A DNA stretch of 64,000 bases, from the sequence record MH752840.1; one strand, 5' to 3'. The notes beneath the pieces were generated by a model that saw only the letters and a program-made list of their open reading frames with translations, ran no database searches and was not told the origin of the DNA. The first letter of the stretch is position 1. Every line of letters starts with the position of its first letter. Position numbers and translations under genes: made by a program. The DNA is from Escherichia phage vB_EcoM-Pr121LW. Shown here piece by piece: positions 640 to 64,000 of this stretch.

Positions 640-1064
640 TGAGCACACATCCTCGTTTAGTAGATTGGCAAGAAAGATTGTGGAAAGTGTTTGACGAAGA
701 GGCCACCATACCTTTTGAATGGGGATTCCACGATTGTTGCACCTTTGCAGCCAAGTGTGTTGATGCCCAGTACGGAACAGATTTTCTTTCTAACTTCGAA
801 GGAACGTATAAAACAGAGTTGGAAAGCAAAAGATGGTGCATGCTCCGTTTCAAAACCACACACCTGCCTACTATTTTTGATCTCTTTATGACTCGGCTGG
901 ATACTCATAAACAGGTTCAGCGTGGAGATATTGTCATTTTCGAAGGTCTGAACGGGCTCACCGCTGGTGTGTTCTGGAACAACCAGATTTGGGCGAAAGG
1001 TGATAAAGGGGTCTTTATGTTCGACATGAAAGATTCTATCGTTGTTGATGTCTGGAGGTATTAA
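639..1064 (+). CDS. tail-tip associated protein with HDCC cysteine motif (candidate phage NlpC/P60-like peptidase family)
   Basis: ORF track 627..1064; ATG 639 overlaps upstream stop (TAATG) and its stop overlaps J start; motif GFHDCCTFAAKC. Confidence 0.45.
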   Translation: MSTHPRLVDWQERLWKVFDEEATIPFEWGFHDCCTFAAKCVDAQYGTDFLSNFEGTYKTELESKRWCMLRFKTTHLPTIFDLFMTRLDTHKQVQRGDIVIFEGLNGLTAGVFWNNQIWAKGDKGVFMFDMKDSIVVDVWRY

Positions 1065-4000
1065 TGCCAATTGCAATGATTGATAACATCGTTGCTTCTG
1101 CAAGATCTTCAAGTTATGACTGGAACGCATCCAAGGCAGCTCTGGCTGACAGCCTGAACACTGTTACCACCAGAACTCTGGATAAGATTTTTGAGGGCAA
1201 CAAATCTTACAGAAGTCAGCAAGATAGACAAAAGCTTCTCAGATCTTCTGCTGCACCCTGCTCTGTAGTGTATGGGAAGACACGCACGTCTGGGCTGCTT
1301 GCGTTTTTGGAGCAGGACAGAGACAGAACCCTCCATTGTGCCATTGTTCTTGCTAATCATCCTCTGGAAGGTATAGAAGACATACTCATCGACGGTAATC
1401 CTATTTCCTCGTATGGAGATCTGGTATCGTGGGAGCTACATAACGACAGAAAAACATCTGATCCTTTCATGGGTACACACTGCCCATCGTGGTCACCAGA
1501 TATGATAGGCAGAGGTATCAGTTGGCTGCGTGCCAGCTTCAAGTTTGACCCCAGTAAGTTTCCTTTTGGGTTGCCAAACGTTACACTGGTCAAGGTTGGT
1601 AAAAAATGCTATGACCCCCGCATCAGTAAAGAGGTGTATACCAATAACGCGGCCTTGGTGATCCTGGACTATTTAAGAACGTACCTTAAATGTCCTGACG
1701 AAACCATCAACTGGGAGTCCTTTAGGGAGGCTGCCAATATATGCGACGAGGCGGTAAAAAACGCTGACGGAACCAGTGAGCGACGTTACACCATTAACGG
1801 TGAGTTTGACATGGATGAGGCCCCAGCAAGTATTATGGCAGAAATGCTGAAAGCTTGCGGTGCAGACCTTAGTTATGTTGCTGGTAAGTATGGTTTGCTG
1901 GTTGGTGCATACTATGGCCCAGCAACAATGACACTGAGTGAGGATTGTGTCTGTGGTGAGGTCAAGATCTATCCGGAAGCCTCCTTTGACAAGAGATCCA
2001 ACACAATAACTGGCAGATTCACTAGTCCGACCAAAGGGTATTCTGAAACAGATTTTCCATCAGTGTTTGTCCCAGAGTGGATAGAGAAGGATGGAGAAAG
2101 AAAGATAATTGATATAGACTATCGCTTTGTTACCAGTCCTTATCAAGCTCAGCGTGTTTCTGCAATCTTCTTAAGACGTGCTAGAGCTGGCAGGATTATT
2201 GAAGTCACCTGCAATATGCGAGGTTTTAAATTTAAACCTGGCCGTTACGTTACAATGGACCTTCCAAGTATTGGTATAGTAGGCCAAGAAATGAGGGTTC
2301 TTGAATGGGAGTTCACCAAAAAGGGCGGTGTCAAGGTAAAACTTCGTCAAGATGCTAAAGAGTGGAATGATGCCACAGGGCAACTTCCGGATTCTGGTGA
2401 TGTAGATATTCCGATATCTCCATCTGGTGTAGCTCAACCGCAAAACTTCAGATATTCCGTTCTCCAAGCCGGGGAAGTAACTCACGGTGTTTTGGCTTGG
2501 GACAACGTTGGAACTTACGCTCAAAATATTGTGCAGGTAAGAAAGAACGGAGAGATTGTTTGGACAGCACAGACAGTTGAGCAGTTTGTCCGAGTAGAAG
2601 GCTTGACCAAAGGATCATACACAGCAACCGTGGTTGCAACATCTTATAAAGGTGGTGTATCTCCAGAAGCGTACTGCGAGTTCAACATTCAGGCACCTGA
2701 AGCTCCTGTTTCTGTGGAGGTTAAGCAGGGATACTTTGCTATTACCCTGATCCCGCACAGCAGAGACTTGGCTAGTGTAAGCACCCAGTACGACTTTTGG
2801 ACATCTGGGATGACAAGATTGCCAGATACCAGTGATGTAACAGTTACTTCAAAAGCCACTCGTATGGGTGTTGGTTCAACTTGGACATCTGAAGGTCTGC
2901 AGAACGATAAGATTTATTACTGGTATATCAGGACAACAAATGCTTTTGGTTCATCTGCTTTTGTGGAGTGTGCAGCCCACTGTTACACATCCATAGAAGA
3001 TCTTATGCCACAGATTGATGCTGAGTTCAAAAAGACAGAGACTTATAAAGAGCTTACCGCCAATCTTGATAATGCAGTCAAGGAAATGGATAAAAATGTT
3101 GGTGCAGTCAATGACCGTGTTACTAGCATTTTTGAAGAGCTTGGGGATACAATAGAGGGTGTTGTCAGAGAGACGACAGAAAAATTTACAGGGGTTAATG
3201 GAGAAATTTCTGCCCTTAACAGTAAGCTGGTAGCAGCTCAGCAATCCTTTGACGATAAACTTGCAGCAGAGTCTGGTAGGCTTGGGTCACTAATCGAGAC
3301 AACAAATAGATCAACCGTTGATCTTGTTAATCGTAAAACTCAAGCATTGAGTGAGCAAATAACTGCAACTCAAGGTGCTCTGCGGGAAGAGTTGAAGAAC
3401 ACTGAGAGCAAACTTAACTCCTCTATTCAAGAAACCAACAAGGCAACAACCGATCTGCTAAATAAGACAACGGAAGCTATTAAGCAGGATCTGGTGGCAG
3501 CTACAGGGAAGATCACCAAGCTGGAAGATGATGTGCAGAAAGAGGTTGCCAATCTGCAAGCATCTATTCAAGAAACTAATAGTACAACAGTTGATCTTGT
3601 TAATAATACAGCCACAGCGATCCGTCAAGAACTTACCTCTGCAAAACAAGAAATTGTTGACGAAATGGGTAATATTGATGAGCTCAGGGCTACAGTATCT
3701 AATACCTCTAAAGCTGTAACAACACTTGAGGGTAAAATAGATGCTCAGTGGGGAGCTAAGATTCAGGTTGACAGCCATGGTAATAAATATGTGGCAGGTA
3801 TCCAGCTGGGCATGGAGGGGTCTGGAGGACAAGTTCAATCATACTTCATGGTTAGTGCAAACAACTTTGCGGTATACAACCCCGGAAATGGAACAGCAAC
3901 CCTTGCTTTCGCAATCAAGAACAACCAAGCGTTCTTGAAAGACGCTTTTATAGAGAATGGCACGATCTCCTCTGCCAAGATCGCACAAGAAATTTCGTCA

Positions 4001-4483
4001 AACAACTACGATGGCAACGGGTACCATAAATACGGTTGGTATATTAACAAGAACGGGCATGCCCAATTTATGGATGTGTGGGTGAAAGGCAACATCAACG
4101 CCAGTTCTGGTAACTTCACAGGGGCAGTTAATGCCACCAGTGGTACCTTCCGTGGAGATGTTTATGCCAATAATGGTAGCTTTAGAGGCACCATAGATGC
4201 AACCGGAGGTACATTCCGTGGTCGTGTAGAAGCTTCTGTTATCCGTGCTAACCAGTTCGAAGGTGCAATTGTTGCACACAGGACTTACGGAGATTGTGCT
4301 CCAGTGCATAACTCCCAGCAGAGGGTTTGCCGTTGGAGGTGGAGATACGTAGATAACGTTTCAGGTCAAGGTAAGAACGTAACATTCTTCTTTAAACTGA
4401 ACGGTACTCGTGCCAACTCCCAACTAAATGCGTGGATAGCTGGTCATCAACTCCTTGCTGGCAAGAAGTACGGGAACGGATAA
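1064..4483 (+). CDS. tip attachment / host specificity protein, lambda J-like central tail fibre; 3' end frameshifted by tandem duplication
   Basis: 1139 aa; FN3-like region and segment AKIQVDSHGNKYVAGIQLGMEG...FMVSANNFAVYNP recalled as resembling lambda gpJ; central coiled-coil; G-rich beta-repeat C-terminus. Confidence 0.85.
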   Translation: MPIAMIDNIVASARSSSYDWNASKAALADSLNTVTTRTLDKIFEGNKSYRSQQDRQKLLRSSAAPCSVVYGKTRTSGLLAFLEQDRDRTLHCAIVLANHPLEGIEDILIDGNPISSYGDLVSWELHNDRKTSDPFMGTHCPSWSPDMIGRGISWLRASFKFDPSKFPFGLPNVTLVKVGKKCYDPRISKEVYTNNAALVILDYLRTYLKCPDETINWESFREAANICDEAVKNADGTSERRYTINGEFDMDEAPASIMAEMLKACGADLSYVAGKYGLLVGAYYGPATMTLSEDCVCGEVKIYPEASFDKRSNTITGRFTSPTKGYSETDFPSVFVPEWIEKDGERKIIDIDYRFVTSPYQAQRVSAIFLRRARAGRIIEVTCNMRGFKFKPGRYVTMDLPSIGIVGQEMRVLEWEFTKKGGVKVKLRQDAKEWNDATGQLPDSGDVDIPISPSGVAQPQNFRYSVLQAGEVTHGVLAWDNVGTYAQNIVQVRKNGEIVWTAQTVEQFVRVEGLTKGSYTATVVATSYKGGVSPEAYCEFNIQAPEAPVSVEVKQGYFAITLIPHSRDLASVSTQYDFWTSGMTRLPDTSDVTVTSKATRMGVGSTWTSEGLQNDKIYYWYIRTTNAFGSSAFVECAAHCYTSIEDLMPQIDAEFKKTETYKELTANLDNAVKEMDKNVGAVNDRVTSIFEELGDTIEGVVRETTEKFTGVNGEISALNSKLVAAQQSFDDKLAAESGRLGSLIETTNRSTVDLVNRKTQALSEQITATQGALREELKNTESKLNSSIQETNKATTDLLNKTTEAIKQDLVAATGKITKLEDDVQKEVANLQASIQETNSTTVDLVNNTATAIRQELTSAKQEIVDEMGNIDELRATVSNTSKAVTTLEGKIDAQWGAKIQVDSHGNKYVAGIQLGMEGSGGQVQSYFMVSANNFAVYNPGNGTATLAFAIKNNQAFLKDAFIENGTISSAKIAQEISSNNYDGNGYHKYGWYINKNGHAQFMDVWVKGNINASSGNFTGAVNATSGTFRGDVYANNGSFRGTIDATGGTFRGRVEASVIRANQFEGAIVAHRTYGDCAPVHNSQQRVCRWRWRYVDNVSGQGKNVTFFFKLNGTRANSQLNAWIAGHQLLAGKKYGNG

Positions 4484-4605
4484 CGTTTCAGGTCAAGGTA
4501 AGAACGTAACATTCTTCTTTAAACTGAACGGTACTCGTGCCAACTCCCAACTAAATGCGTGGATAGCTGGTCATCAACTCCTTGCTGGCAAGAAGTACGG
4601 GAACG
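4352..4605 (+). repeat. perfect tandem direct repeat, 2 x 127 bp (4352-4478 and 4479-4605)
   Basis: Both copies identical base for base on manual comparison; junction creates TAA 4481-4483 in J frame. Confidence 0.95.
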
Positions 4606-4790
4606 CCAACGATGGCATGTGTGCAATTGGGATAACAGGTCTAGGTGAACAAACTATAGACATTATTATTGAAATCTACACCCCGTGGTCAACGTCAAAC
4701 GTGACAGGTGTCACAATCTCCTGTCCCACTGTGATCGTTAGTCGTTCTAACTCAAGCTTCCAGGGACCTTGGAACGAGTCTCACGACTAA
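4479..4790 (+). other. displaced out-of-frame C-terminal coding segment of J-like gene
   Basis: ORF track 4455..4790 re-reads repeat copy 2 in the frame J uses in copy 1, then continues 61 codons (ANDGMCAIGITG...NESHD) to TAA 4788-4790. Confidence 0.6.
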
Positions 4791-4797
4791 CCTTTAA

Positions 4798-4826
4798 AGC
4801 CCCGCTTCGGCGGGGTTTATTTTTAT
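4798..4826 (+). terminator. rho-independent terminator, CCCCGC-UUCG-GCGGGG hairpin plus T-run
   Basis: 6-bp GC stem with UUCG tetraloop (4800-4815) followed by TTTATTTTTAT. Confidence 0.7.
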
Positions 4827-4833
4827 GCTCAGA

Positions 4834-4862
4834 TTGACTATTGTTACAAAATTTGGTAAAAT
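4834..4862 (+). promoter_or_regulatory. sigma70-like promoter TTGACT-17-TAAAAT
   Basis: -35 at 4834-4839, -10 at 4857-4862; 33 nt upstream of GTG 4896 with GGAGGA SD. Confidence 0.5.
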
Positions 4863-4895
4863 ACCTTGTAGAGATTTTCATACCGGAGGAGTGAC

Positions 4896-6386
4896 GTGGC
4901 TAAGTATGGATTGACAGAGGCTGGTTTCGTTATACCAACCCTAAATGACCTAATCGTTGAAACTAAGCAAAGCCTGATCCGTGCTTTTGGCGAAAACTTC
5001 AACGTACAGAGTAACTCCGTTGCAGATAAGCTGACCACTATCTTCAACGAGCGAGAGTATCAACTTATTCTTATGGCAGCATCTGTATACGCATCACAGA
5101 CGCTGTATGGGGCAGAAGGTATTTACCTAGACGAACTTCTTGGAAGACGGGGTATTTACCGAAGAGGCCGTTCTAAATCATCAGGTACCTGCCAGTTGAC
5201 GATCAACACAACTGTTCCGTACAATATGATTTACGATTCCAAAACTTATACGTTGGATAGTGGCAACTTTGTTCTTAGCAATGATGTGCAAGTAGCAGGG
5301 AATCTTATTGCTCACAGAATAAATGCTCCAGACCTAAGGATTGGTAAATACAACTTTCAAATTACCAACCAGACAGATGGAAGTATCAAAACAAAAAGTC
5401 TGGTTTTAACAGATAAGGCTCTGGACTCTTCTGATCTGCCAAGCTTTTACGGAGAGATTAAGCAATTCATTGTCGATAATACAACTCTGTTGAACGACGA
5501 TTTGATTCAGATCGATATGTTGACAGGAACGTTGTGGATAGGGTACAATTCGAATCTTGACCAAGTTGGACTTAATAGTAGGGTAGATTTCAGAGTATCC
5601 CCGATTGTAGGGGAAAGAACTATCACCCTAGATGTTATCGCTAACGAGGCTGGTGAGCTGTCAAGAGAGGCAGAAACCGTGACAACAATGTCACCTACTC
5701 CCAGTGGATTTATCAAGCTTACCAACCGAGAAAGATTCAATGAGGGAAGGGATGTTGAGAAAGACTCAGAGTACCGCTTAAGAGCTTCCAGCACAAAACA
5801 GTTAACATCTAAGGCTACCCGTCCTGCAATCCTTAGCGCTGTAAGCGAGGTGAAAGGTGTTGAGAAAGTGAGAGTGTTCTCTAACAATACCGATAAAACT
5901 GATGCTAAAGGTATACCTCCTTACAAGTTCCAAGTGGTTGTGTTTGGTGGTGCAACAGAGGACATTTGCCAAGCACTTTACCAAACTATAGCCTGTACGA
6001 ACAGGACTTATGGTAATATTTTCTACGATGTAACTACATCTGACGGTCAAACTGAAAGAATTTATTATTCCAAGGCAAATACCTACCGCCTGGATGTAAG
6101 AATTACCTACTCCGGTGCTGCGCTTTCCACAACCGAAAAAGATGCCATTGTAGAGGCTCTTTTGCAGGTTGTTAACGGACTGGATGTTGCAGATACGTTG
6201 TACAATATCCAATTGGTCGGTGCTGCATCTGCTGCTGTGTCGATAGGTAGATTTAATAGACTGGTAATTCAAGTTAAACCTGTGGGTGCTTCTGATGAAG
6301 CTTACACTGCAAACGATATTGTTGCAAACATGACCGAGGTGTTTGACCTCGATGAAAGTAATATAACTTTCCAACAAACTATTTAG
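4896..6386 (+). CDS. tail/baseplate structural protein (baseplate J-like candidate)
   Basis: 496 aa, GTG start with GGAGGA SD; position after J; N-terminal pattern loosely like baseplate J family. Confidence 0.5.
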   Translation: MAKYGLTEAGFVIPTLNDLIVETKQSLIRAFGENFNVQSNSVADKLTTIFNEREYQLILMAASVYASQTLYGAEGIYLDELLGRRGIYRRGRSKSSGTCQLTINTTVPYNMIYDSKTYTLDSGNFVLSNDVQVAGNLIAHRINAPDLRIGKYNFQITNQTDGSIKTKSLVLTDKALDSSDLPSFYGEIKQFIVDNTTLLNDDLIQIDMLTGTLWIGYNSNLDQVGLNSRVDFRVSPIVGERTITLDVIANEAGELSREAETVTTMSPTPSGFIKLTNRERFNEGRDVEKDSEYRLRASSTKQLTSKATRPAILSAVSEVKGVEKVRVFSNNTDKTDAKGIPPYKFQVVVFGGATEDICQALYQTIACTNRTYGNIFYDVTTSDGQTERIYYSKANTYRLDVRITYSGAALSTTEKDAIVEALLQVVNGLDVADTLYNIQLVGAASAAVSIGRFNRLVIQVKPVGASDEAYTANDIVANMTEVFDLDESNITFQQTI

Positions 6387-7084: not shown

Positions 7085-9156
7085 TGGCAACAGCTGTTTT
7101 TAAACCTTACCGTGATTACTCTACAATGGCTGCACGGTTTCATTACCGCACAGTTCAGGATACTGCCGTTCCTGGTAGGGATTATGATCATGTTGAGGGC
7201 GATATAACTATCCCAGTTGGGGCAACCAGTATTGAGATTCCAGTGGAAATTGTTGACAAATTACCCAACAGGTTACCAAGAAGCTTCTTTATGGAGTTTT
7301 CATCAAAATCTCAAGGGGTGATGATTGGAACACAAAGGGCGAAATGCACAATAGTTTCAGATGAGAATCTTGACAGGATATCTTGGGATACTGTCGAGGA
7401 GAGAATGTTTCACCCAAGATATTGGGTTACAACTACTCAGCAGACTGAAAGTACCTGTATTGTTGCAGATGACAACTGTTGTATTAACCGTTTAGTGTCA
7501 AGAACATATGGAGGTATGGCTGGGTGCATTTGGGAAACAGTTGACAAGTATGACCATTTCGGTATTGGGTTTGATGATCACTATGAGATGAGAAACACCA
7601 AGCTTTGGTTCAGAATGTCAATAACCAATGCCAGCAACTTCTCCACTCCTGAAAAGATGATTATGACTGTAGACCTTGTTGATGGTACAATCATCTATGT
7701 TCCTTTAGCTCAATATGCTGTCAGCATCTCAGAGGATAAGAATGTTGCAGAGATTCATATTGATTTCGAGGACTGCGTCGGGATGGATCAGAACAACAAC
7801 ATGATGGGTGTTGATCCTCGACAGGTGAGAAGAATTTTAATACCGCTTATGCCTAAAGACTGGGTAAGTAATAGCACAGACCCGAGAACGGAAAATGTAG
7901 AGTGTGAGTTGCGCCTAGATCTGCTTCAGCCAGACACGGGCTGGAAAATGATGCAACTTAACAATATTCAGGTTAAAGAGCACGACGTTGGGATCTGCAC
8001 CGCATATGACGATATGTGGAACGTATCTCCTTTAAGGGTGTTGAACAATATCAAGCGTCTGGGCTATACCGGAACCATAAACCATTATGTTGGTATGAGT
8101 CATTATTATGACTACACATGGTCAGGAACCCAATGGTCTATAAACAGAACAGGGGCGCTAAACGCTGCAGCTTATAAATGGCATGATGATTTTATGTACA
8201 ATGCCAAACGACATAACTTCGACGTTATGCAGTCTGTAAGTTTTGAGCTTTACAGCGATGCCTGCCCGTTGGAATGGACCCAAAGAGACTGGAATGATAA
8301 CTACGCTAAAACAGGATATACACCTTGTAGCTACCTCCTGTCTCCAACCATTGAAGAGGGTATGAATTTCCTTACTGCAGTATTTAAGAATTTTGCATCA
8401 GCCGCTATGAGAAACAACCTGCCAGTGATTATGCAGGTTGGTGAACCGTGGTGGTGGTACAATACCGATACTCGTAGACCTTGTATTTATGATTACCCTA
8501 CAAAACAGGCGTTTTATGATGAGACAGGCGAGTATGCCTTAGATATTGGGACTATTGACGATCCTAAAACTGGAGGTGTTTACGACAAGTATGTAGCATT
8601 TTGTCGTGGTAAGCTTGGCGCTCGTATTGCGGCTATTTCAAAGGCAATAAAGGCGCATGCTGCATCAGCTAAGATGACAGCTCTGCTGTTTTTCCCAACC
8701 ATTATGGAAACCGAACTTACGCAAAAGCTTAACCTTGCTGACCAATATAAAAAAGAAGCAGGTGCTCTTGATTTCTTCTGCACTGAGTGCTACGATTGGG
8801 TGATGCAGGGAGGTATTGAAAAGGCAAAAGAGTCTGTAAACATACCTATCGTTAAGTTAGGTTGGCAACCGTCTGAAATACAATACCTTGCAGGGTTCGT
8901 TCCTAGTAAAGAGCTTGCTCCGGTATATGGATACGACCCAACTAGGAATTACCAAGAATTTTTATGGAGATGTATTTGCGGAAACATGGCAACTATAGAG
9001 TATAGATACCCTGAGGTAAAACAGTATGTGTGGGCATACCCGCAAGTAATGTCTGACAGCATCACTGTTACCGCTAGAGATTCTACCGTGCTTCATATGG
9101 GGCAGGTTGCTCTGAAAGGGTATGTAGAAGATGTTGTCCCGCCAGACTTCTCATAA
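7084..9156 (+). CDS. tail structural protein
   Basis: 690 aa; ATG overlaps upstream stop (TAATG); tail operon context. Confidence 0.5.
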   Translation: MATAVFKPYRDYSTMAARFHYRTVQDTAVPGRDYDHVEGDITIPVGATSIEIPVEIVDKLPNRLPRSFFMEFSSKSQGVMIGTQRAKCTIVSDENLDRISWDTVEERMFHPRYWVTTTQQTESTCIVADDNCCINRLVSRTYGGMAGCIWETVDKYDHFGIGFDDHYEMRNTKLWFRMSITNASNFSTPEKMIMTVDLVDGTIIYVPLAQYAVSISEDKNVAEIHIDFEDCVGMDQNNNMMGVDPRQVRRILIPLMPKDWVSNSTDPRTENVECELRLDLLQPDTGWKMMQLNNIQVKEHDVGICTAYDDMWNVSPLRVLNNIKRLGYTGTINHYVGMSHYYDYTWSGTQWSINRTGALNAAAYKWHDDFMYNAKRHNFDVMQSVSFELYSDACPLEWTQRDWNDNYAKTGYTPCSYLLSPTIEEGMNFLTAVFKNFASAAMRNNLPVIMQVGEPWWWYNTDTRRPCIYDYPTKQAFYDETGEYALDIGTIDDPKTGGVYDKYVAFCRGKLGARIAAISKAIKAHAASAKMTALLFFPTIMETELTQKLNLADQYKKEAGALDFFCTECYDWVMQGGIEKAKESVNIPIVKLGWQPSEIQYLAGFVPSKELAPVYGYDPTRNYQEFLWRCICGNMATIEYRYPEVKQYVWAYPQVMSDSITVTARDSTVLHMGQVALKGYVEDVVPPDFS

Positions 9157-9168
9157 TCAGGAGATAAA

Positions 9169-10209
9169 ATGTCAAAACCTAGTTTTCCATTAGAGATTTG
9201 GGCAGAGGAGGATCAGGTTCTGCCTAACACCCACAGACAGAACAGGCTACGCCCGATTGATGATTTGTGGAGAAAAGGTTGGGATCTTGGTCAAAAGCCC
9301 TCATGTGAAGAACTTAACTATATTTTCAATATGCTCGGAACTTGGGCAAAATATATTGCTGACGAGCAGATCCCCGCTCAAGAAGGCCGTTATCTGGTAC
9401 GCGATAATAACTTGAGTGATCTTTTGAACATTCCTGTTGCCCGTAGAAACCTTGGGATTATTACTAAGGAAGAGGCAGACGCCAGGTATGTAAAAGTTAC
9501 AGGTGATACAATGACAGGCCCACTGGGTTTGCAACGTATCAACTTTAAAGCTGCCGAGACAGATAAGGCTTGGATAGAGACAACTATTGGCCCAGATAAG
9601 ACAACTCTCGACTTTGGGTTAAGTGATAATACCGGGTCGTTTGATGATGGTGGTACATCTACAGTAGATGCGTTTCGTTGGAGATTCCAGCCAACTCAAC
9701 CGGATATCAATCCGGAGTTCACTTTGATGTACCTTAACGCGATCACGGCTAACCGTGCGCTGTTGAAAGTGATAGGCAATGTTGAAGTTGTCGATAACAT
9801 GAGGTGCAATAACCTTACTATCAGCAATACAGCAACATTCACCAACTGTAATGTGGCTAGTCAGTTGACGGCTGGGTCAGTGTATGTTAATGGTGGTACA
9901 AGTTGTGACAGTATGGTTGTAAGAAGTCAGCACTGTGTTGTCGGTAACAGAAATGTGGTGCGCTCTGTGAATGGAGTGACGGCTAACGGTAACGGTGATG
10001 TAACAATCACTATCCCGCAGACAGGTGTGCAAGACATCAGAATCGGTGCAAGACTTGTTGACGGCGTTTCTGAATCTCCAATTCGCAACGGCTACGTTGT
10101 CACAGGCTGGCATTTCGGTGACAAAAAAGAGATGCGTGGTTCAACCTACTGGGCAGGACCTTTACAAAAACTTGTAAATGGTCAATGGATCACTGTTAAT
10201 TATGCATAG
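9169..10209 (+). CDS. tail fibre protein, paralogue A
   Basis: 346 aa; GDTMTGPL motif; N- and C-termini (…KLVNGQWITVNYA) shared with 11224..12267; followed by Tfa-like gene. Confidence 0.7.
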   Translation: MSKPSFPLEIWAEEDQVLPNTHRQNRLRPIDDLWRKGWDLGQKPSCEELNYIFNMLGTWAKYIADEQIPAQEGRYLVRDNNLSDLLNIPVARRNLGIITKEEADARYVKVTGDTMTGPLGLQRINFKAAETDKAWIETTIGPDKTTLDFGLSDNTGSFDDGGTSTVDAFRWRFQPTQPDINPEFTLMYLNAITANRALLKVIGNVEVVDNMRCNNLTISNTATFTNCNVASQLTAGSVYVNGGTSCDSMVVRSQHCVVGNRNVVRSVNGVTANGNGDVTITIPQTGVQDIRIGARLVDGVSESPIRNGYVVTGWHFGDKKEMRGSTYWAGPLQKLVNGQWITVNYA

Positions 10210-10819: not shown

Positions 10820-11134
10820 GTGGAGTTGGATTTGGCGGCATTGTACGGTATCTGCATGGGTACCGTTGTCCCGATCTGTGTATGGGCTTTCAACCAGTGG
10901 CACACCAAATGGAAAGGCATTTCCAAGAGGTTGGATGAACTGGAGAAAGACCTCATCTTAGTGAAAAACAGTATGGTTACAAAAGATAAACTTGATTCCG
11001 TTATCGAGACCCGGTTAAGCAAGCTAGAGGCCGATATTAACGACCTTAAGCAGGATGTCAGGACAGATGTCTCCGGTATCCGAGCTGATGTACAAAAGAT
11101 TTTGCACATGCTCGTAGAGCATAGTAAAAGGTAA
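10820..11134 (+). CDS. small membrane-anchored coiled-coil protein
   Basis: 104 aa; GTG start 4 nt after AAGAGGAGG; N-terminal hydrophobic helix then heptad-like region. Confidence 0.45.
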   Translation: MELDLAALYGICMGTVVPICVWAFNQWHTKWKGISKRLDELEKDLILVKNSMVTKDKLDSVIETRLSKLEADINDLKQDVRTDVSGIRADVQKILHMLVEHSKR

Positions 11135-11223: not shown

Positions 11224-12267
11224 ATGACTAAACCAGTTATCCCTCTTGATATTTGGGCCAATCAGGATGTTGTGCTTGAAAATACGGGAGAATTGAATAA
11301 GTCCCAACCAAAAAAAGAAGAGAGACTGAAAGGTTGGGATATGACACAAAGAGTGGCATGTGAAGTTGTTAACTTTGAACTTCACATGCTTTCTGCGTGG
11401 TTAAAGCATTTAACAGAAGATGTTGTCCCAGGATGGGATAATAGATTCTTAAGGGTCACTAATAATCTGGCAGACGTTCCAGACAAAGCTGCTGCACGTC
11501 AAGTTCTCAATGTATACTCGCCTGAAGAAATGGATGACCTTTATGTTGACAAGGCTGGAGACACAATGATCCAGACTCAAACTTTAGGTCTTCAAAGAAT
11601 CGAGTTTGCATCCGCGTCAACAGACAATGCGGCGATATACACCACCATAACTTCAGACAAGACGATGATGGATTTCTGGATTATGGACAACATCGGTGGT
11701 GCTGACGGCACAGACCTTGATGATCCCTCTCACCAAATAGACGGTTTCCGTTGGAGATTTCAACCTTCTGGTGGGCAGCCTGTGTTTTCAGCTATGAAGC
11801 TCAATGCTATAACTGCCAACCGTGCAAGACTGGCTATCCAAGGAAATCTTGAATGCAACGACGCAAAAAGTTCCTCTACAAATGCCAATGCAGCTACTAT
11901 ACCAAGAGCCACTGTTAATGGACAACAATCCTGTGGAAGCGCTCAAATAGGTGGAAGAGTTGATTGCAACGATGAAACCGTCAGGGGCCAATATGCAACA
12001 GTTGGTGGAAGAAACGTGGTCCGCAGGGTAAATGGTAACAGCGCAGACGGTAGTGGTAACCTTACTATCCCTATGCCCAGCAGAGGGGTTGATGATGTGA
12101 GGATAGCAAACCGTTTCAAAACCACCTACAGAGAGTCAAGAGTCTACCCTGGACATGTGATGTGCTCGGGTAACTACGCTTATAAACACCCTTATCAAGG
12201 TGATTACTGGACAGGTGCTATCCAAAAACTTGTAAATGGTCAATGGATCACTATATCTTATGCTTAA
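11224..12267 (+). CDS. tail fibre protein, paralogue B
   Basis: ORF track 11221 (GTG); ATG 11224 with CAGGAG SD; GDTMIQTQTLGL motif; termini paralogous to 9169..10209 (…KLVNGQWITISYA). Confidence 0.7.
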   Translation: MTKPVIPLDIWANQDVVLENTGELNKSQPKKEERLKGWDMTQRVACEVVNFELHMLSAWLKHLTEDVVPGWDNRFLRVTNNLADVPDKAAARQVLNVYSPEEMDDLYVDKAGDTMIQTQTLGLQRIEFASASTDNAAIYTTITSDKTMMDFWIMDNIGGADGTDLDDPSHQIDGFRWRFQPSGGQPVFSAMKLNAITANRARLAIQGNLECNDAKSSSTNANAATIPRATVNGQQSCGSAQIGGRVDCNDETVRGQYATVGGRNVVRRVNGNSADGSGNLTIPMPSRGVDDVRIANRFKTTYRESRVYPGHVMCSGNYAYKHPYQGDYWTGAIQKLVNGQWITISYA

Positions 12268-40574: not shown

Positions 40575-43352
40575 ATGAGTATGTATAGCTTCGATTTTGA
40601 GGCCTCTGGGCTTTTGGAAGATCCAGACCTTTATTATCACTGCGGCCTGTTTAAAGCGTTGAATAAGAACCGTTTTATGCTGTTCCTTCCTCTGAATGAC
40701 CGCACACACTACTCCGAGGAGGATATAGAGAAGGCTAAGAACTTTATTCTGGCAAAGAAAACTCTTTATAAGGATTTTGAAGTTCGCATAGCAGATTTTT
40801 CGGAGTTGGAAGGTTGGCTTACAGGAAATTCTGACTGGTCACCAACAGCTTTGAACTGCCATAACTGCTACAGTTATGACTTTATGCTGATGGAGAGATT
40901 GTCCGGTATTCATTTTGATATGTTCCGTGACCCTAAGTGTATGGGGACTATCAACGACCACCAGGTTAATCTGTTTGATACGTTGGCGATGAGCCGAATC
41001 TTGTGGCCTGATCGCCCTTTACCAAAAGGTTGTCCGGACTCTGTATTCAACCCGGTTACTAAGAAAATGCAGCCTGTTGGTCCTCACGGACTTATGGCAT
41101 GGGGCTACGCCCTTGGTAACCAGAAAGTTCAAATTGATGACTGGCGCGATCTTCCGTTGTGGAAGTATGTGGATCGTGTATTCGAGGACGTTATCATCCA
41201 GGAGCTGCTCTGGAAAGAGCTGGTAGCGGAATCAAAAGGTGTATTCTACGGCAAATCTGACATGCAGAACTTTATGTACGATCCTGCCAAAGAGAAGCCG
41301 AAAGGGTTCAAGAAGATCACCTGGAAGAACGCATTACGCCGAGGCATGCTGCAGCACTTCCTGATGGAACTGCAGGCCCGTCAGGGTGTGTATTTTGACA
41401 TAGATGGAGCTATTGCTTTACGTGACCGTTGCGATGCGTGGATGAAAGAAATCGCTGATCGTGTTGAACCTCAACTTCCTTTAAAAGAGTTATCAATATC
41501 TCAGCGGCCCAAGTTCCCTGAAAAGCCGTTTAACCAAGACGGGACAATCTCTAATAATGGTTGGAAATGGTTAAAAGATAAGCTTGGCTATCCTGTAGAC
41601 ATGAGCGCTTTAGATTTCAAATCCCCGCCTAAGCGAGCATTTACCTCTACAGGAGATGTCAGCAAGATGGGGATAAAATGGTGTGAAGAGATGGGCTGCA
41701 AAGACCCCGATAAGATGGCTGATTTCTTGAGAGGCTATATTAAGGGCACTTCCACACCTCACCCTTTGCCTAAAGAGCTGATGGATCAGGCAATAAGTGA
41801 TCTACAGCAGAAGCGAATGCCGGACTGCAAGATACCTATGAAAATCAGCAATCAGGACGACATTAAGCGGTATCTGATCAGTGCTGGCTGGCTACCGACA
41901 ATGTGGAGAACTAAGGATGTAACTAAAGATAGCAAGAAGAAAGCTCTACCTGATGCGGATGTTGATGCACGAGTATATGCATATATGGACGAGCTTTTAG
42001 AGTCAGAGTATTGTGACCTGATTATCAACTTCTGGAACAAAACTGATGCCAAGTTCCAGACAACTGTGCACAAGTTCCGAAGCTTTCCTAACTCTGAAAG
42101 GATTAAAAAGGAAGTATTCGGGAAAATACGTAGAAAAGCCAGAGCACTTATTACTTCTCCGCAACTGAAAGATACGTTTGGACACCTGTGTCCGAATCTT
42201 GAAAAATTGAACGGAGAGATGGCTAAAGATATCGTCTTGTGGTTATCATTGCGAAACCGCAGATCAGTCCTTGACCCAATCAAGGAGGATAAGGTTGATA
42301 CTGGTCTTCTTAATCACCCACGTTTGAAGATTGACCATAAGCTTCCTGCTAAAAGCTCTGGATTAACAAACACTTCCAGACAGAAACACAGTATTTGTGC
42401 AAACATGCCTAAACCATCCCCCAAAGTGGTTATGGGTAAAGAGATGCGCAGTCTGTGGGGTGTTCCTCCTGGATACTTTCAGATCGGTATTGACGGGTCC
42501 AACTTAGAGCAGCTTATCGGGGCTTGGGGTGCCTTTGAGTTCGACAACGGCTTGTATTATGATGTTGTAAGTAACGGGGACGCACACCAAAACAATGCTG
42601 AGGCATATACAAAAGTAGCAGGCAGAGAGGTGTCTCGTAACGACGGTAAACCTATCACGTATGGGGTTATGTACGGGGCACAAAAAGATAAAGTTGCAGA
42701 TATGCTGGACATCTCTCCAGAGTTGGGACAAAGGGTAATCGATGCACTCTGGGATGCCAACCCTGGTCTCAAGGGGCGCAAAGAGGATCTGGAGAAATTC
42801 TGGGAAGCAACTGGTAAGAAGTTTATCTACTCTTTTGATGGTCATGCTATCTGGACCAGATCTAAACACTCTTTACTTAATGCATACCAACAGAATGGTG
42901 GTGCATCGCTGTGTGACTTAGTTGGGATACTTATGCACCACCAGATGGTGAAGCGTGGGTGGTACGATGAAGGTGTTCGTCGTATTATCTATTACCATGA
43001 TGAGTACCAACTTCAGGTCCCTGACACTCCTAAGTATAAGACTGTGTACACCTTCGACACAATTGAAGAACTGGAAGCATTTAAGGCAGAGCAGGAGGCC
43101 AAACTTCATGTGTTCGACGGTCATAAGTACAAAAAGGCACGCAAGGATGAGGACGGAAACGAAGTGGTTGACAGAGACGGAAACACGGTGTACGATCCTA
43201 TCCTGAACGATGACGGAAAGCTTGAACTTATCTGGAGCCCTGTGGGTGAAATGGTGGTGCATTGCTTCTGGCAAGCTTCTAAAATGATGGGAGTCCCGTT
43301 CCAGATCACAGGTGAATACTTGTGTGGTCGTAACTGGGGTGATTGTCACTAA
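40575..43352 (+). CDS. family A DNA polymerase with 3'-5' exonuclease domain
   Basis: 925 aa; Exo I FDFEASGL; motif A-like IGIDGSNLEQ; motif B K…YGVMYGAQ; motif C YYHDEYQ. Confidence 0.9.
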   Translation: MSMYSFDFEASGLLEDPDLYYHCGLFKALNKNRFMLFLPLNDRTHYSEEDIEKAKNFILAKKTLYKDFEVRIADFSELEGWLTGNSDWSPTALNCHNCYSYDFMLMERLSGIHFDMFRDPKCMGTINDHQVNLFDTLAMSRILWPDRPLPKGCPDSVFNPVTKKMQPVGPHGLMAWGYALGNQKVQIDDWRDLPLWKYVDRVFEDVIIQELLWKELVAESKGVFYGKSDMQNFMYDPAKEKPKGFKKITWKNALRRGMLQHFLMELQARQGVYFDIDGAIALRDRCDAWMKEIADRVEPQLPLKELSISQRPKFPEKPFNQDGTISNNGWKWLKDKLGYPVDMSALDFKSPPKRAFTSTGDVSKMGIKWCEEMGCKDPDKMADFLRGYIKGTSTPHPLPKELMDQAISDLQQKRMPDCKIPMKISNQDDIKRYLISAGWLPTMWRTKDVTKDSKKKALPDADVDARVYAYMDELLESEYCDLIINFWNKTDAKFQTTVHKFRSFPNSERIKKEVFGKIRRKARALITSPQLKDTFGHLCPNLEKLNGEMAKDIVLWLSLRNRRSVLDPIKEDKVDTGLLNHPRLKIDHKLPAKSSGLTNTSRQKHSICANMPKPSPKVVMGKEMRSLWGVPPGYFQIGIDGSNLEQLIGAWGAFEFDNGLYYDVVSNGDAHQNNAEAYTKVAGREVSRNDGKPITYGVMYGAQKDKVADMLDISPELGQRVIDALWDANPGLKGRKEDLEKFWEATGKKFIYSFDGHAIWTRSKHSLLNAYQQNGGASLCDLVGILMHHQMVKRGWYDEGVRRIIYYHDEYQLQVPDTPKYKTVYTFDTIEELEAFKAEQEAKLHVFDGHKYKKARKDEDGNEVVDRDGNTVYDPILNDDGKLELIWSPVGEMVVHCFWQASKMMGVPFQITGEYLCGRNWGDCH

Positions 43353-53735: not shown

Positions 53736-53783
53736 GTTTATTTTTAGATGGCCTTGACTCCAGGGCCATCAATAAAGTAAACT
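53736..53783 (+). repeat. 45-bp repeated element copy 1: promoter with -35 TTGACT in loop of GATGGCC/GGCCATC inverted repeat
   Basis: TTTATTTTTAGATGGCCTTGACTCCAGGGCCATCAATAAAGTAAA identical at 54357 and 58075; -35 at 53754-53759, -10 TAAACT at 53778-53783. Confidence 0.75.
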
Positions 53784-53814
53784 AACCACAGTTGAGCGGA
53801 AAGGGGGCTTAAAG

Positions 53815-54354: not shown

Positions 54355-54402
54355 ATTTATTTTTAGATGGCCTTGACTCCAGGGCCATCAATAAAGTAAA
54401 CT
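54355..54402 (+). repeat. 45-bp repeated element copy 2 (promoter in inverted repeat)
   Basis: -35 TTGACT 54373-54378 between GATGGCC 54366-54372 and GGCCATC 54383-54389; -10 TAAACT 54397-54402. Confidence 0.75.
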
Positions 54403-54443
54403 TTACACTGTTAACACTGAACTAATACAGAGGAGTTAAAACC

Positions 54444-54689: not shown

Positions 54690-54737
54690 TTATTTTTTCG
54701 GTGGTCCTTGCTGCAGGGCCATCTATAAAGATAATTT
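54690..54737 (+). repeat. diverged copy of the 45-bp element with CTTGCT-17-GATAAT
   Basis: TTATTTTTTCGGTGGTCCTTGCTGCAGGGCCATCTATAAAGATAATTT; partial inverted repeat retained. Confidence 0.5.
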
Positions 54738-54764
54738 ACTAACACCATGAAAGGAGAAAGTAAC

Positions 54765-58073: not shown

Positions 58074-58121
58074 ATTTATTTTTAGATGGCCTTGACTCCA
58101 GGGCCATCAATAAAGTAAATT
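58074..58121 (+). repeat. 45-bp repeated element copy 3 (promoter in inverted repeat)
   Basis: -35 TTGACT 58092-58097 between GATGGCC 58085-58091 and GGCCATC 58102-58108; -10 TAAATT 58116-58121. Confidence 0.75.
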
Positions 58122-58165
58122 TAAACCCTGTTAAAATACCACGCAGTTAACAAGGAGTGATAGAC

Positions 58166-63836: not shown

Positions 63837-63849
63837 TTATCATCTTTGT

Positions 63850-63895
63850 GTAAACTGTCAAGGTGTAAACTATCCAGGCGTAAACAGTCTATGCA
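63850..63895. repeat. three tandem GTAAAC-containing ~15-bp units
   Basis: GTAAACTGTCAAGG / GTAAACTATCCAGG / GTAAACAGTCTATGCAGG. Confidence 0.6.
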
Positions 63896-64000
63896 GGAAC
63901 AATCTATACGTGAACAGTGAAACATGAAATAATAACGATTGTTATTGTGTCATATTGTGCTGCAGTGTGTTATGTTGTGCCCAGTGTGTCCAGTATGTCA

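Follow-up and report, generated by a model that had tools for sequence, protein, structure and literature searches.

A perfect 127-nt tandem duplication in the J-like tail-tip gene of Escherichia phage vB_EcoM-Pr121LW, very probably an untrimmed assembly overlap

The stretch of DNA analysed here, hereafter the window, comprises 64,000 nucleotides of the sequence record of Escherichia phage vB_EcoM-Pr121LW (MH752840.1). Judged by sequence similarity, it comes from a Vequintavirus, a myovirus of E. coli similar to rV5 and with a genome of about 137 kb. The window aligns collinearly with the region from ~61.2 to 125.6 kb of phage phiWec196 (LC739542), and apart from the tandem repeat described below its structural-gene module is free of structural anomalies. 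The surroundings of the repeat (3800-5200) are matched by 116 phage records at 90 to 99% identity, phiWec196 being the best of them at 99.0%. Elsewhere in the alignment with phiWec196, some 840 nt of that phage are absent from the window at 42998/42999, and past ~48.8 kb an accessory region of small genes is more indel-rich and contains stretches of lower identity.

The affected gene codes for a J-like tail-tip protein and, once restored by the in silico deletion of one copy of the repeat, consists of a 3600-nt ORF encoding 1199 aa. The restored protein carries a Phage_Tail_Tip domain (PF09327) at residues 878-1017, with 132.1 bits for a cut-off of 22, and an Ig_J_second domain (PF24489) at 547-652, with 104.6 bits for a cut-off of 27; PF24421 scores 24.4 bits, under its cut-off of 29. 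Among known structures it matches those of lambda J (8iyk, chain 8iyk_J, E=2.4e-27, and 8xcg), as well as other J-like tail-tip proteins. In relatives, the gene is labelled 'host specificity protein J', 'central tail fiber J' or 'lateral tail fiber protein with fibronectin type III domain'. Past residue ~1036 of 1199 we found no Pfam or PDB sequence match, so that the last ~160 aa, including the duplicated part, have none. An AlphaFold2 model of the C-terminal 329 aa of the relative P0002, built on an alignment of 8 sequences, reached a mean pLDDT of 37 and gave no usable fold; the homologous-protein search had returned 8 proteins, mostly fragments, which is enough for locating the ends of homologues and shallow for modelling.

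Near its distal end the gene contains two adjacent copies of a 127-nt unit (Table 1), which are identical base for base according to a reading of the sequence, a direct string comparison and a repeat search. Tandem Repeats Finder reports a repeat at 4352-4605 with a period of 127, 2.0 copies, 100% matches and 0 indels, that is, no divergence between the copies. Chance cannot produce a perfect match of 127 nt. The register of the repeat is unique, the bases at the edges being different (A at 4351 and G at 4478; G at 4479 and C at 4606), and comparison of both edges reveals zero microhomology at the endpoints.

Table 1. Features of the J-like tail-tip locus, in window coordinates
Feature	Position	Strand	Remarks
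J-like tail-tip ORF as written	1064..4483	+	1139 aa, shortened by the junction stop; assigned from Pfam, lambda J matches and the annotation of relatives
Copy 1 of the 127-nt unit	4352..4478	+	codons 1097-1138 plus 1 nt of the J-like gene
Copy 2 of the 127-nt unit, very probably spurious	4479..4605	+	equals the k=127 graph node ending one base before 4606
Junction TAA stop	4481..4483	+	formed by the junction of copies 1 and 2; absent from every relative inspected
Window-private SNP	4606	+	C, against A in six near-identical contigs; first base after copy 2; D1139A
Displaced last 61 codons and stop (A/D-NDGMCAIGITG...NESHD, stop)	4605..4790	+	conserved, purifying selection
Intrinsic-terminator-like hairpin and T-run	4797..4826	+	directly 3' of the natural stop
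Next gene, 496-aa baseplate protein	4896..6386	+	product identical in six independent contigs

The two copies meet where AAGTACGGGAACG is directly followed by GATAACGTTTCAGG, which is read as ...AAC G/GA TAA (the slash marks the junction), and the TAA so formed ends the ORF that starts at 1064. The repeat is out of frame (127 = 3 x 42 + 1) and its product lacks 61 conserved residues; the +1 frame runs through copy 2 and then through the native end, ...NESHD, to the stop at 4788-4790. No decay is seen in the now 'untranslated' tail of the gene, and the hairpin beyond the natural stop marks the true end of the J-like gene. A preliminary description of this DNA had reported these points of anatomy from the letters alone, namely the identity of the two 127-bp copies, the interruption of the J frame by a TAA at their junction, the original C-terminus of 61 codons in the +1 frame, and a single ORF of about 1,200 aa upon removal of one copy. 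Tandem Repeats Finder, the string comparison, the ORF ending at 4483, the translation of the +1 frame and the 1199-aa product all agree with it.

In the whole 64-kb window, the repeat search found no other pair of long perfect repeats, and in particular no further 127-bp repeat of the kind that would signal a concatenation of multiple contigs. Other repeated elements were observed. Four intergenic repeats of 57 nt, 65 to 100% identical, lie at 53737-53793, 54356-54412, 54690-54746 and 58075-58131; in each, the arms GATGGCC...GGCCATC of an inverted repeat enclose a TTGAC motif, and ATAAAGT comes next, and by their sequence they look like a repeated promoter/operator of the small-gene (early) region. 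A 62-nt direct repeat with 84% identity (10147-10208 and 12205-12266) is found within two neighbouring genes of ~346 aa; the Vequintavirinae reportedly possess two short-tail-fibre paralogues, as the BASEL paper is said to describe, and the repeat in this gene pair fits such paralogy. Near the right end of the window, 63848-63990 contains imperfect tandem repeats with periods of 15 (2.8 copies) and 20 (2.3 copies).

We then asked how relatives are organized at this site, using the best 40 of the 116 Vequintavirus matches and 60 records spread over their ranking. In the best 40, a 1401-nt query was covered in two pieces over 1273 to 1275 nt, which corresponds to one copy. In the 60 records, evenly stepped through the ranking of 116, an 801-nt query was also covered in two pieces, with a span shorter by ~127 nt; the exceptions, only partly covered, were V18 (76%) and C11, whose contig ends at the site. 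An 80-nt query centred on the junction had no match in one piece among these phages, and aligned in two pieces on the ends of a single 127-nt unit. Much closer relatives are provided by six contigs from independent samples (ENA ERZ27275487, NCBI GCA_038314665.1 and four Logan SRA assemblies), which encode an identical 496-aa downstream protein. They are 99.1 to 99.8% identical to the window over ~12 kb and all have a single copy, the 1199-aa J-like gene being intact in five of them, while the sixth begins inside the gene. The exact junction had no match in IMG/VR, JGI metagenomes or GTDB genomes, where the single-copy control was likewise empty; these negatives carry no weight, because no close relative at this site is held in those collections. 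A further match of the J-like region, at 94%, was to PLSDB entry CP057073.1 (137,565 bp), filed as an E. coli plasmid from cattle faeces; its size is that of a Vequintavirus genome, and a phage has probably been deposited here under a plasmid label. Complete E. coli genomes gave no match, and exact look-ups of the truncated J product and of a neighbouring 690-aa protein found neither on record.

The displaced C-terminal end is well conserved. Even homologues of as little as 41-60% identity show no interruption at the KKYGN position and extend to a common C-terminal end, and rV5, ECP32, JEP1 and CarlMeissner stop at one common codon. Over the last ~61 codons, pN/pS is ~0.08 to 0.14 relative to divergent relatives; on this measure, the displaced codons are to be regarded as functional coding sequence under strong purifying selection, and not as a dispensable tail. 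The preliminary description had raised the question of where homologues end: all those examined run on to the ...NESHD end, and the arrangement it had named as a counter-case, natural termination at KKYGNG with a separate downstream gene, was seen in none.

A second particularity of the locus is found immediately downstream of the repeat. When the single-copy version of the window was compared with the six close relatives over 11,873 positions, 27 private differences were counted, of which two are in the J-like gene. One of these two is position 4606, where the window has C and the six near-identical contigs have A, which would give D1139A. This base directly follows copy 2, which begins 127 nt upstream of it, at 4479. 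The probability that a private SNP falls at a given base is ~0.2%, and at either outer flank of the repeat ~0.5%. No phage record perfectly matches the 60-nt stretch around 4606. This stretch (4577-4636, codons ~1130-1150) is at 80-90% identity in 101 of 113 records, compared to ~95% for the surrounding 1.4 kb, and its residues follow the pattern KKYGN-A/D-N-D/N-GMCA-I/V-G, with D1139A inside. Among Vequintaviruses, a well-conserved 127-nt unit is followed by 60 nt of unusual variability, which may form a host-contact patch of the tip domain. The private differences of the window relative to its six closest relatives cluster at 8655-8715, 9675-9975 and 10999-11113, in tail-fibre and baseplate genes, a pattern more suggestive of small recombination tracts than of point mutations scattered along the sequence.

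The question arises as to how such a perfect repeat, ending at such a base, could be generated. De Bruijn graphs branch at the k-mer directly preceding a variable or erroneous site, and it is with this node that contigs end and begin. The repeated unit is precisely the 127-mer whose last base directly precedes the private variant at 4606, so that if this position was biallelic or error-bearing in the reads, the branching node of a k=127 graph would be the unit itself. The contig would then have begun with 'U-C-...' and ended with '...-U', where U is the 127-nt unit, and copy 2 would be the k-length overlap shared by the start and the end of a circular path, or by two neighbouring contigs. Upon re-opening or joining of the contig to match the orientation of a reference, the overlap would have been left untrimmed, placing U-U inside the J-like gene and giving rise to the apparent frameshift.

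The series of k values used by SPAdes is 21, 33, 55, 77, 99 and 127 (PMC4956461), and the length of the repeat is equal to the largest of them, the assembler of the record being one that we infer. Artificial end overlaps of 127 bp are documented for SPAdes phage contigs, and in a coliphage genome report 127-bp terminal repeats were removed, the genome then being re-opened to match the reference (PMC8104045). Should this removal be skipped, re-opening leaves the genome with an internal tandem duplication of 127 bp, both copies being identical. We reconstructed such a course of events from the single-copy sequence, in which 4606 was made biallelic and from which a k=127 graph was built. The only out-branching node, with two successors, was the repeat unit, and a circular walk from that node via the C branch, with the overlap kept and the sequence rotated untrimmed, reproduced the window base for base. 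This reconstruction fits by design, and would speak for consistency and not for proof, although it has no free parameters beyond k=127.

A second, independent assembly breaks within 2 nt of the edge of the unit. In the record MG065652.1 ('Campylobacter phage C11', UNVERIFIED, partial, 58,772 bp), the contig start lies 2 nt outside the right-hand edge of the unit, positions 1-129 being the equivalent of window 4479-4607, and the opposite end falls within nrdD. Where a conserved segment gives way to a variable one, the assembly graph of a mixed or polymorphic phage sample is prone to branching, and two assemblies break at one place because such a transition is located there; by this evidence the boundary looks like a recurrent break point of assembly graphs. 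We also considered, and rejected, that the genome might physically end at the site or carry a short direct terminal repeat there: the C11 record is partial and ends inside nrdD, none of the other records begins at this point, and a conserved structural gene surrounds it. The ends of MG065652.1 are accordingly those of a fragment interrupted at graph branches rather than those of a genome. It belongs to a set (MG065635-MG065690) in which ~18 to 23 'Campylobacter phage' records (C. jejuni, UNVERIFIED, unannotated) are 90-98% identical to E. coli Vequintaviruses; either the C. jejuni host label of this set is wrong or coliphage was present in the samples, probably.

We consider it very probable that the extra 127 bp are an untrimmed k=127 assembly overlap, and thus an error of the record, the assembler and its k being those that we infer. 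The length of the repeat, the position of the SNP and the single-copy state of the relatives favour this explanation, which the preliminary description had listed as the third of its options without placing its emphasis there; of its interpretation, the artefact option stands together with the anatomy, and the two options that it had put before it, a host-range mutation and a reversible switch, are not supported. The true gene is the single-copy J-like ORF of 1199 aa, in which 1064-4478 is joined to 4606-4790.

Three biological scenarios were weighed against the assembly overlap. Phage tail-fibre genes do acquire tandem duplications, and a real, very recent one, arising by slippage or unequal recombination, would leave a J-like protein devoid of 61 aa and act on adsorption or host range, a mutation that may have been tolerated, or selected for, during growth on a laboratory host. 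Perfect copies are what a recent event is expected to produce, and the most variable part of the gene end adjoins the unit, which suggests selection there. However, the length of the repeat coincides with an assembler k, its endpoints are without microhomology, and the private SNP is at the outer flank, which speaks against a real duplication because the only novel junction of such a duplication is the middle one. Moreover, the event is out of frame and costs a segment under strong purifying selection, and neither the inspected relatives nor the six near-identical contigs contain it. A perfect 127-bp tandem repeat readily reverts by recombination, and it is for this reason unlikely that a costly real duplication would become the consensus of a lysate. 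The host-range or adsorption mutation proposed earlier therefore finds little room, no inspected relative carrying the duplication, its length being an assembler k and the unit abutting the SNP; we hold a real duplication to be improbable. The same low credence applies to the broader proposition that the duplication is physically in the stock, which would represent a viable Vequintavirus whose J-like protein is devoid of the conserved last 61 residues, and which could revert via the 127-bp copies. If true, the propagation host would not require the distal domain, or the domain would be toggled. In a weaker form, the proposition would be that only the A/C polymorphism at 4606 (D1139A) is real, as a within-lysate heterogeneity in a host-contact residue; this variant site, perhaps polymorphic in the sequenced stock, is the sole possible biological residue of the locus.

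Alternatively, the gain and loss of one copy could act as a reversible on/off switch, similar to phase variation, since homologous recombination losing one copy restores the frame exactly. Such a switch should recur in the lineage, but ~100 inspected Vequintavirus records and the six contigs are all single-copy and none has the junction, a result on which the switch advanced in the preliminary description founders. In addition, the single-copy sequence is without a feature, such as flanking microhomology, that would promote regeneration of the duplication, and every argument for the artefact counts here too, so that we give the switch next to no credence. Barely credible, to the same degree, is a natural split gene, in which a shorter J-like protein ending at KKYGNG and a separately translated ORF (4455-4790) would reassemble. 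That ORF, of 111 codons with a TTG start, does hold the whole of copy 2 and the native C-terminus in frame, but its TTG has no Shine-Dalgarno-like sequence upstream; more generally, no ribosome-binding site with a start codon is evident in the sequence near 4455-4620, and no ATG, GTG or TTG is located near the TAA for a coupled restart. All homologues, including those of 41-60% identity, are continuous here, and no relative has a separate downstream gene. The alignment of homologues thus effectively refutes the split gene; the fact that they run to NESHD removes this reading, but does not rescue a biological one.

Annotated as it is written, the record would show the J-like gene as truncated or as a pseudogene, together with a spurious small ORF, and its genome length would be 127 bp in excess. 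The main value of the present analysis is one of data hygiene: the mining of records for host-range determinants, or for 'frameshifted' tail genes, would be misled by such an entry. A perfect internal tandem repeat, the length of which equals an assembler k and the outer edge of which abuts a private or variable base, can serve as a diagnostic for errors of this kind.

Three known systems may be compared with the present locus. With lambda J, the gene shares the Phage_Tail_Tip and Ig_J_second domains, both above cut-off, the structure matches and the J annotation of its relatives. In contrast to lambda, a siphovirus, it comes from a contractile-tailed Vequintavirus of ~137 kb, its product has a long coiled-coil-like insert at roughly 660-890, and its C-terminal ~160 aa are without detectable similarity to the receptor-binding end of lambda J. 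The parallel with this receptor-binding C-terminus, on which the preliminary description had relied, hence finds no support in the sequence of residues ~1037-1199. In the T4 tail-fibre adhesin gp37, host-range-expanding duplications are in-frame duplications of domains, which yield a longer functional protein. The present case resembles these in duplicating, in tandem, a segment close to the distal end of a gene of the tail-fibre type, and differs from them in that it is out of frame and shortens the protein. The closest likeness is to the k-mer end overlaps of SPAdes contigs: the repeat is exactly 127 nt long, its copies are identical, the unit is the graph node before a variant site, and independent assemblies of near-identical phages lack the extra copy. 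Such overlaps are normally found at contig ends, whereas this one is internal, and an additional step of re-opening or concatenation without trimming would thus have taken place; the fact that Vequintavirus records open at many different positions is in keeping with an end-overlap artefact of this type.
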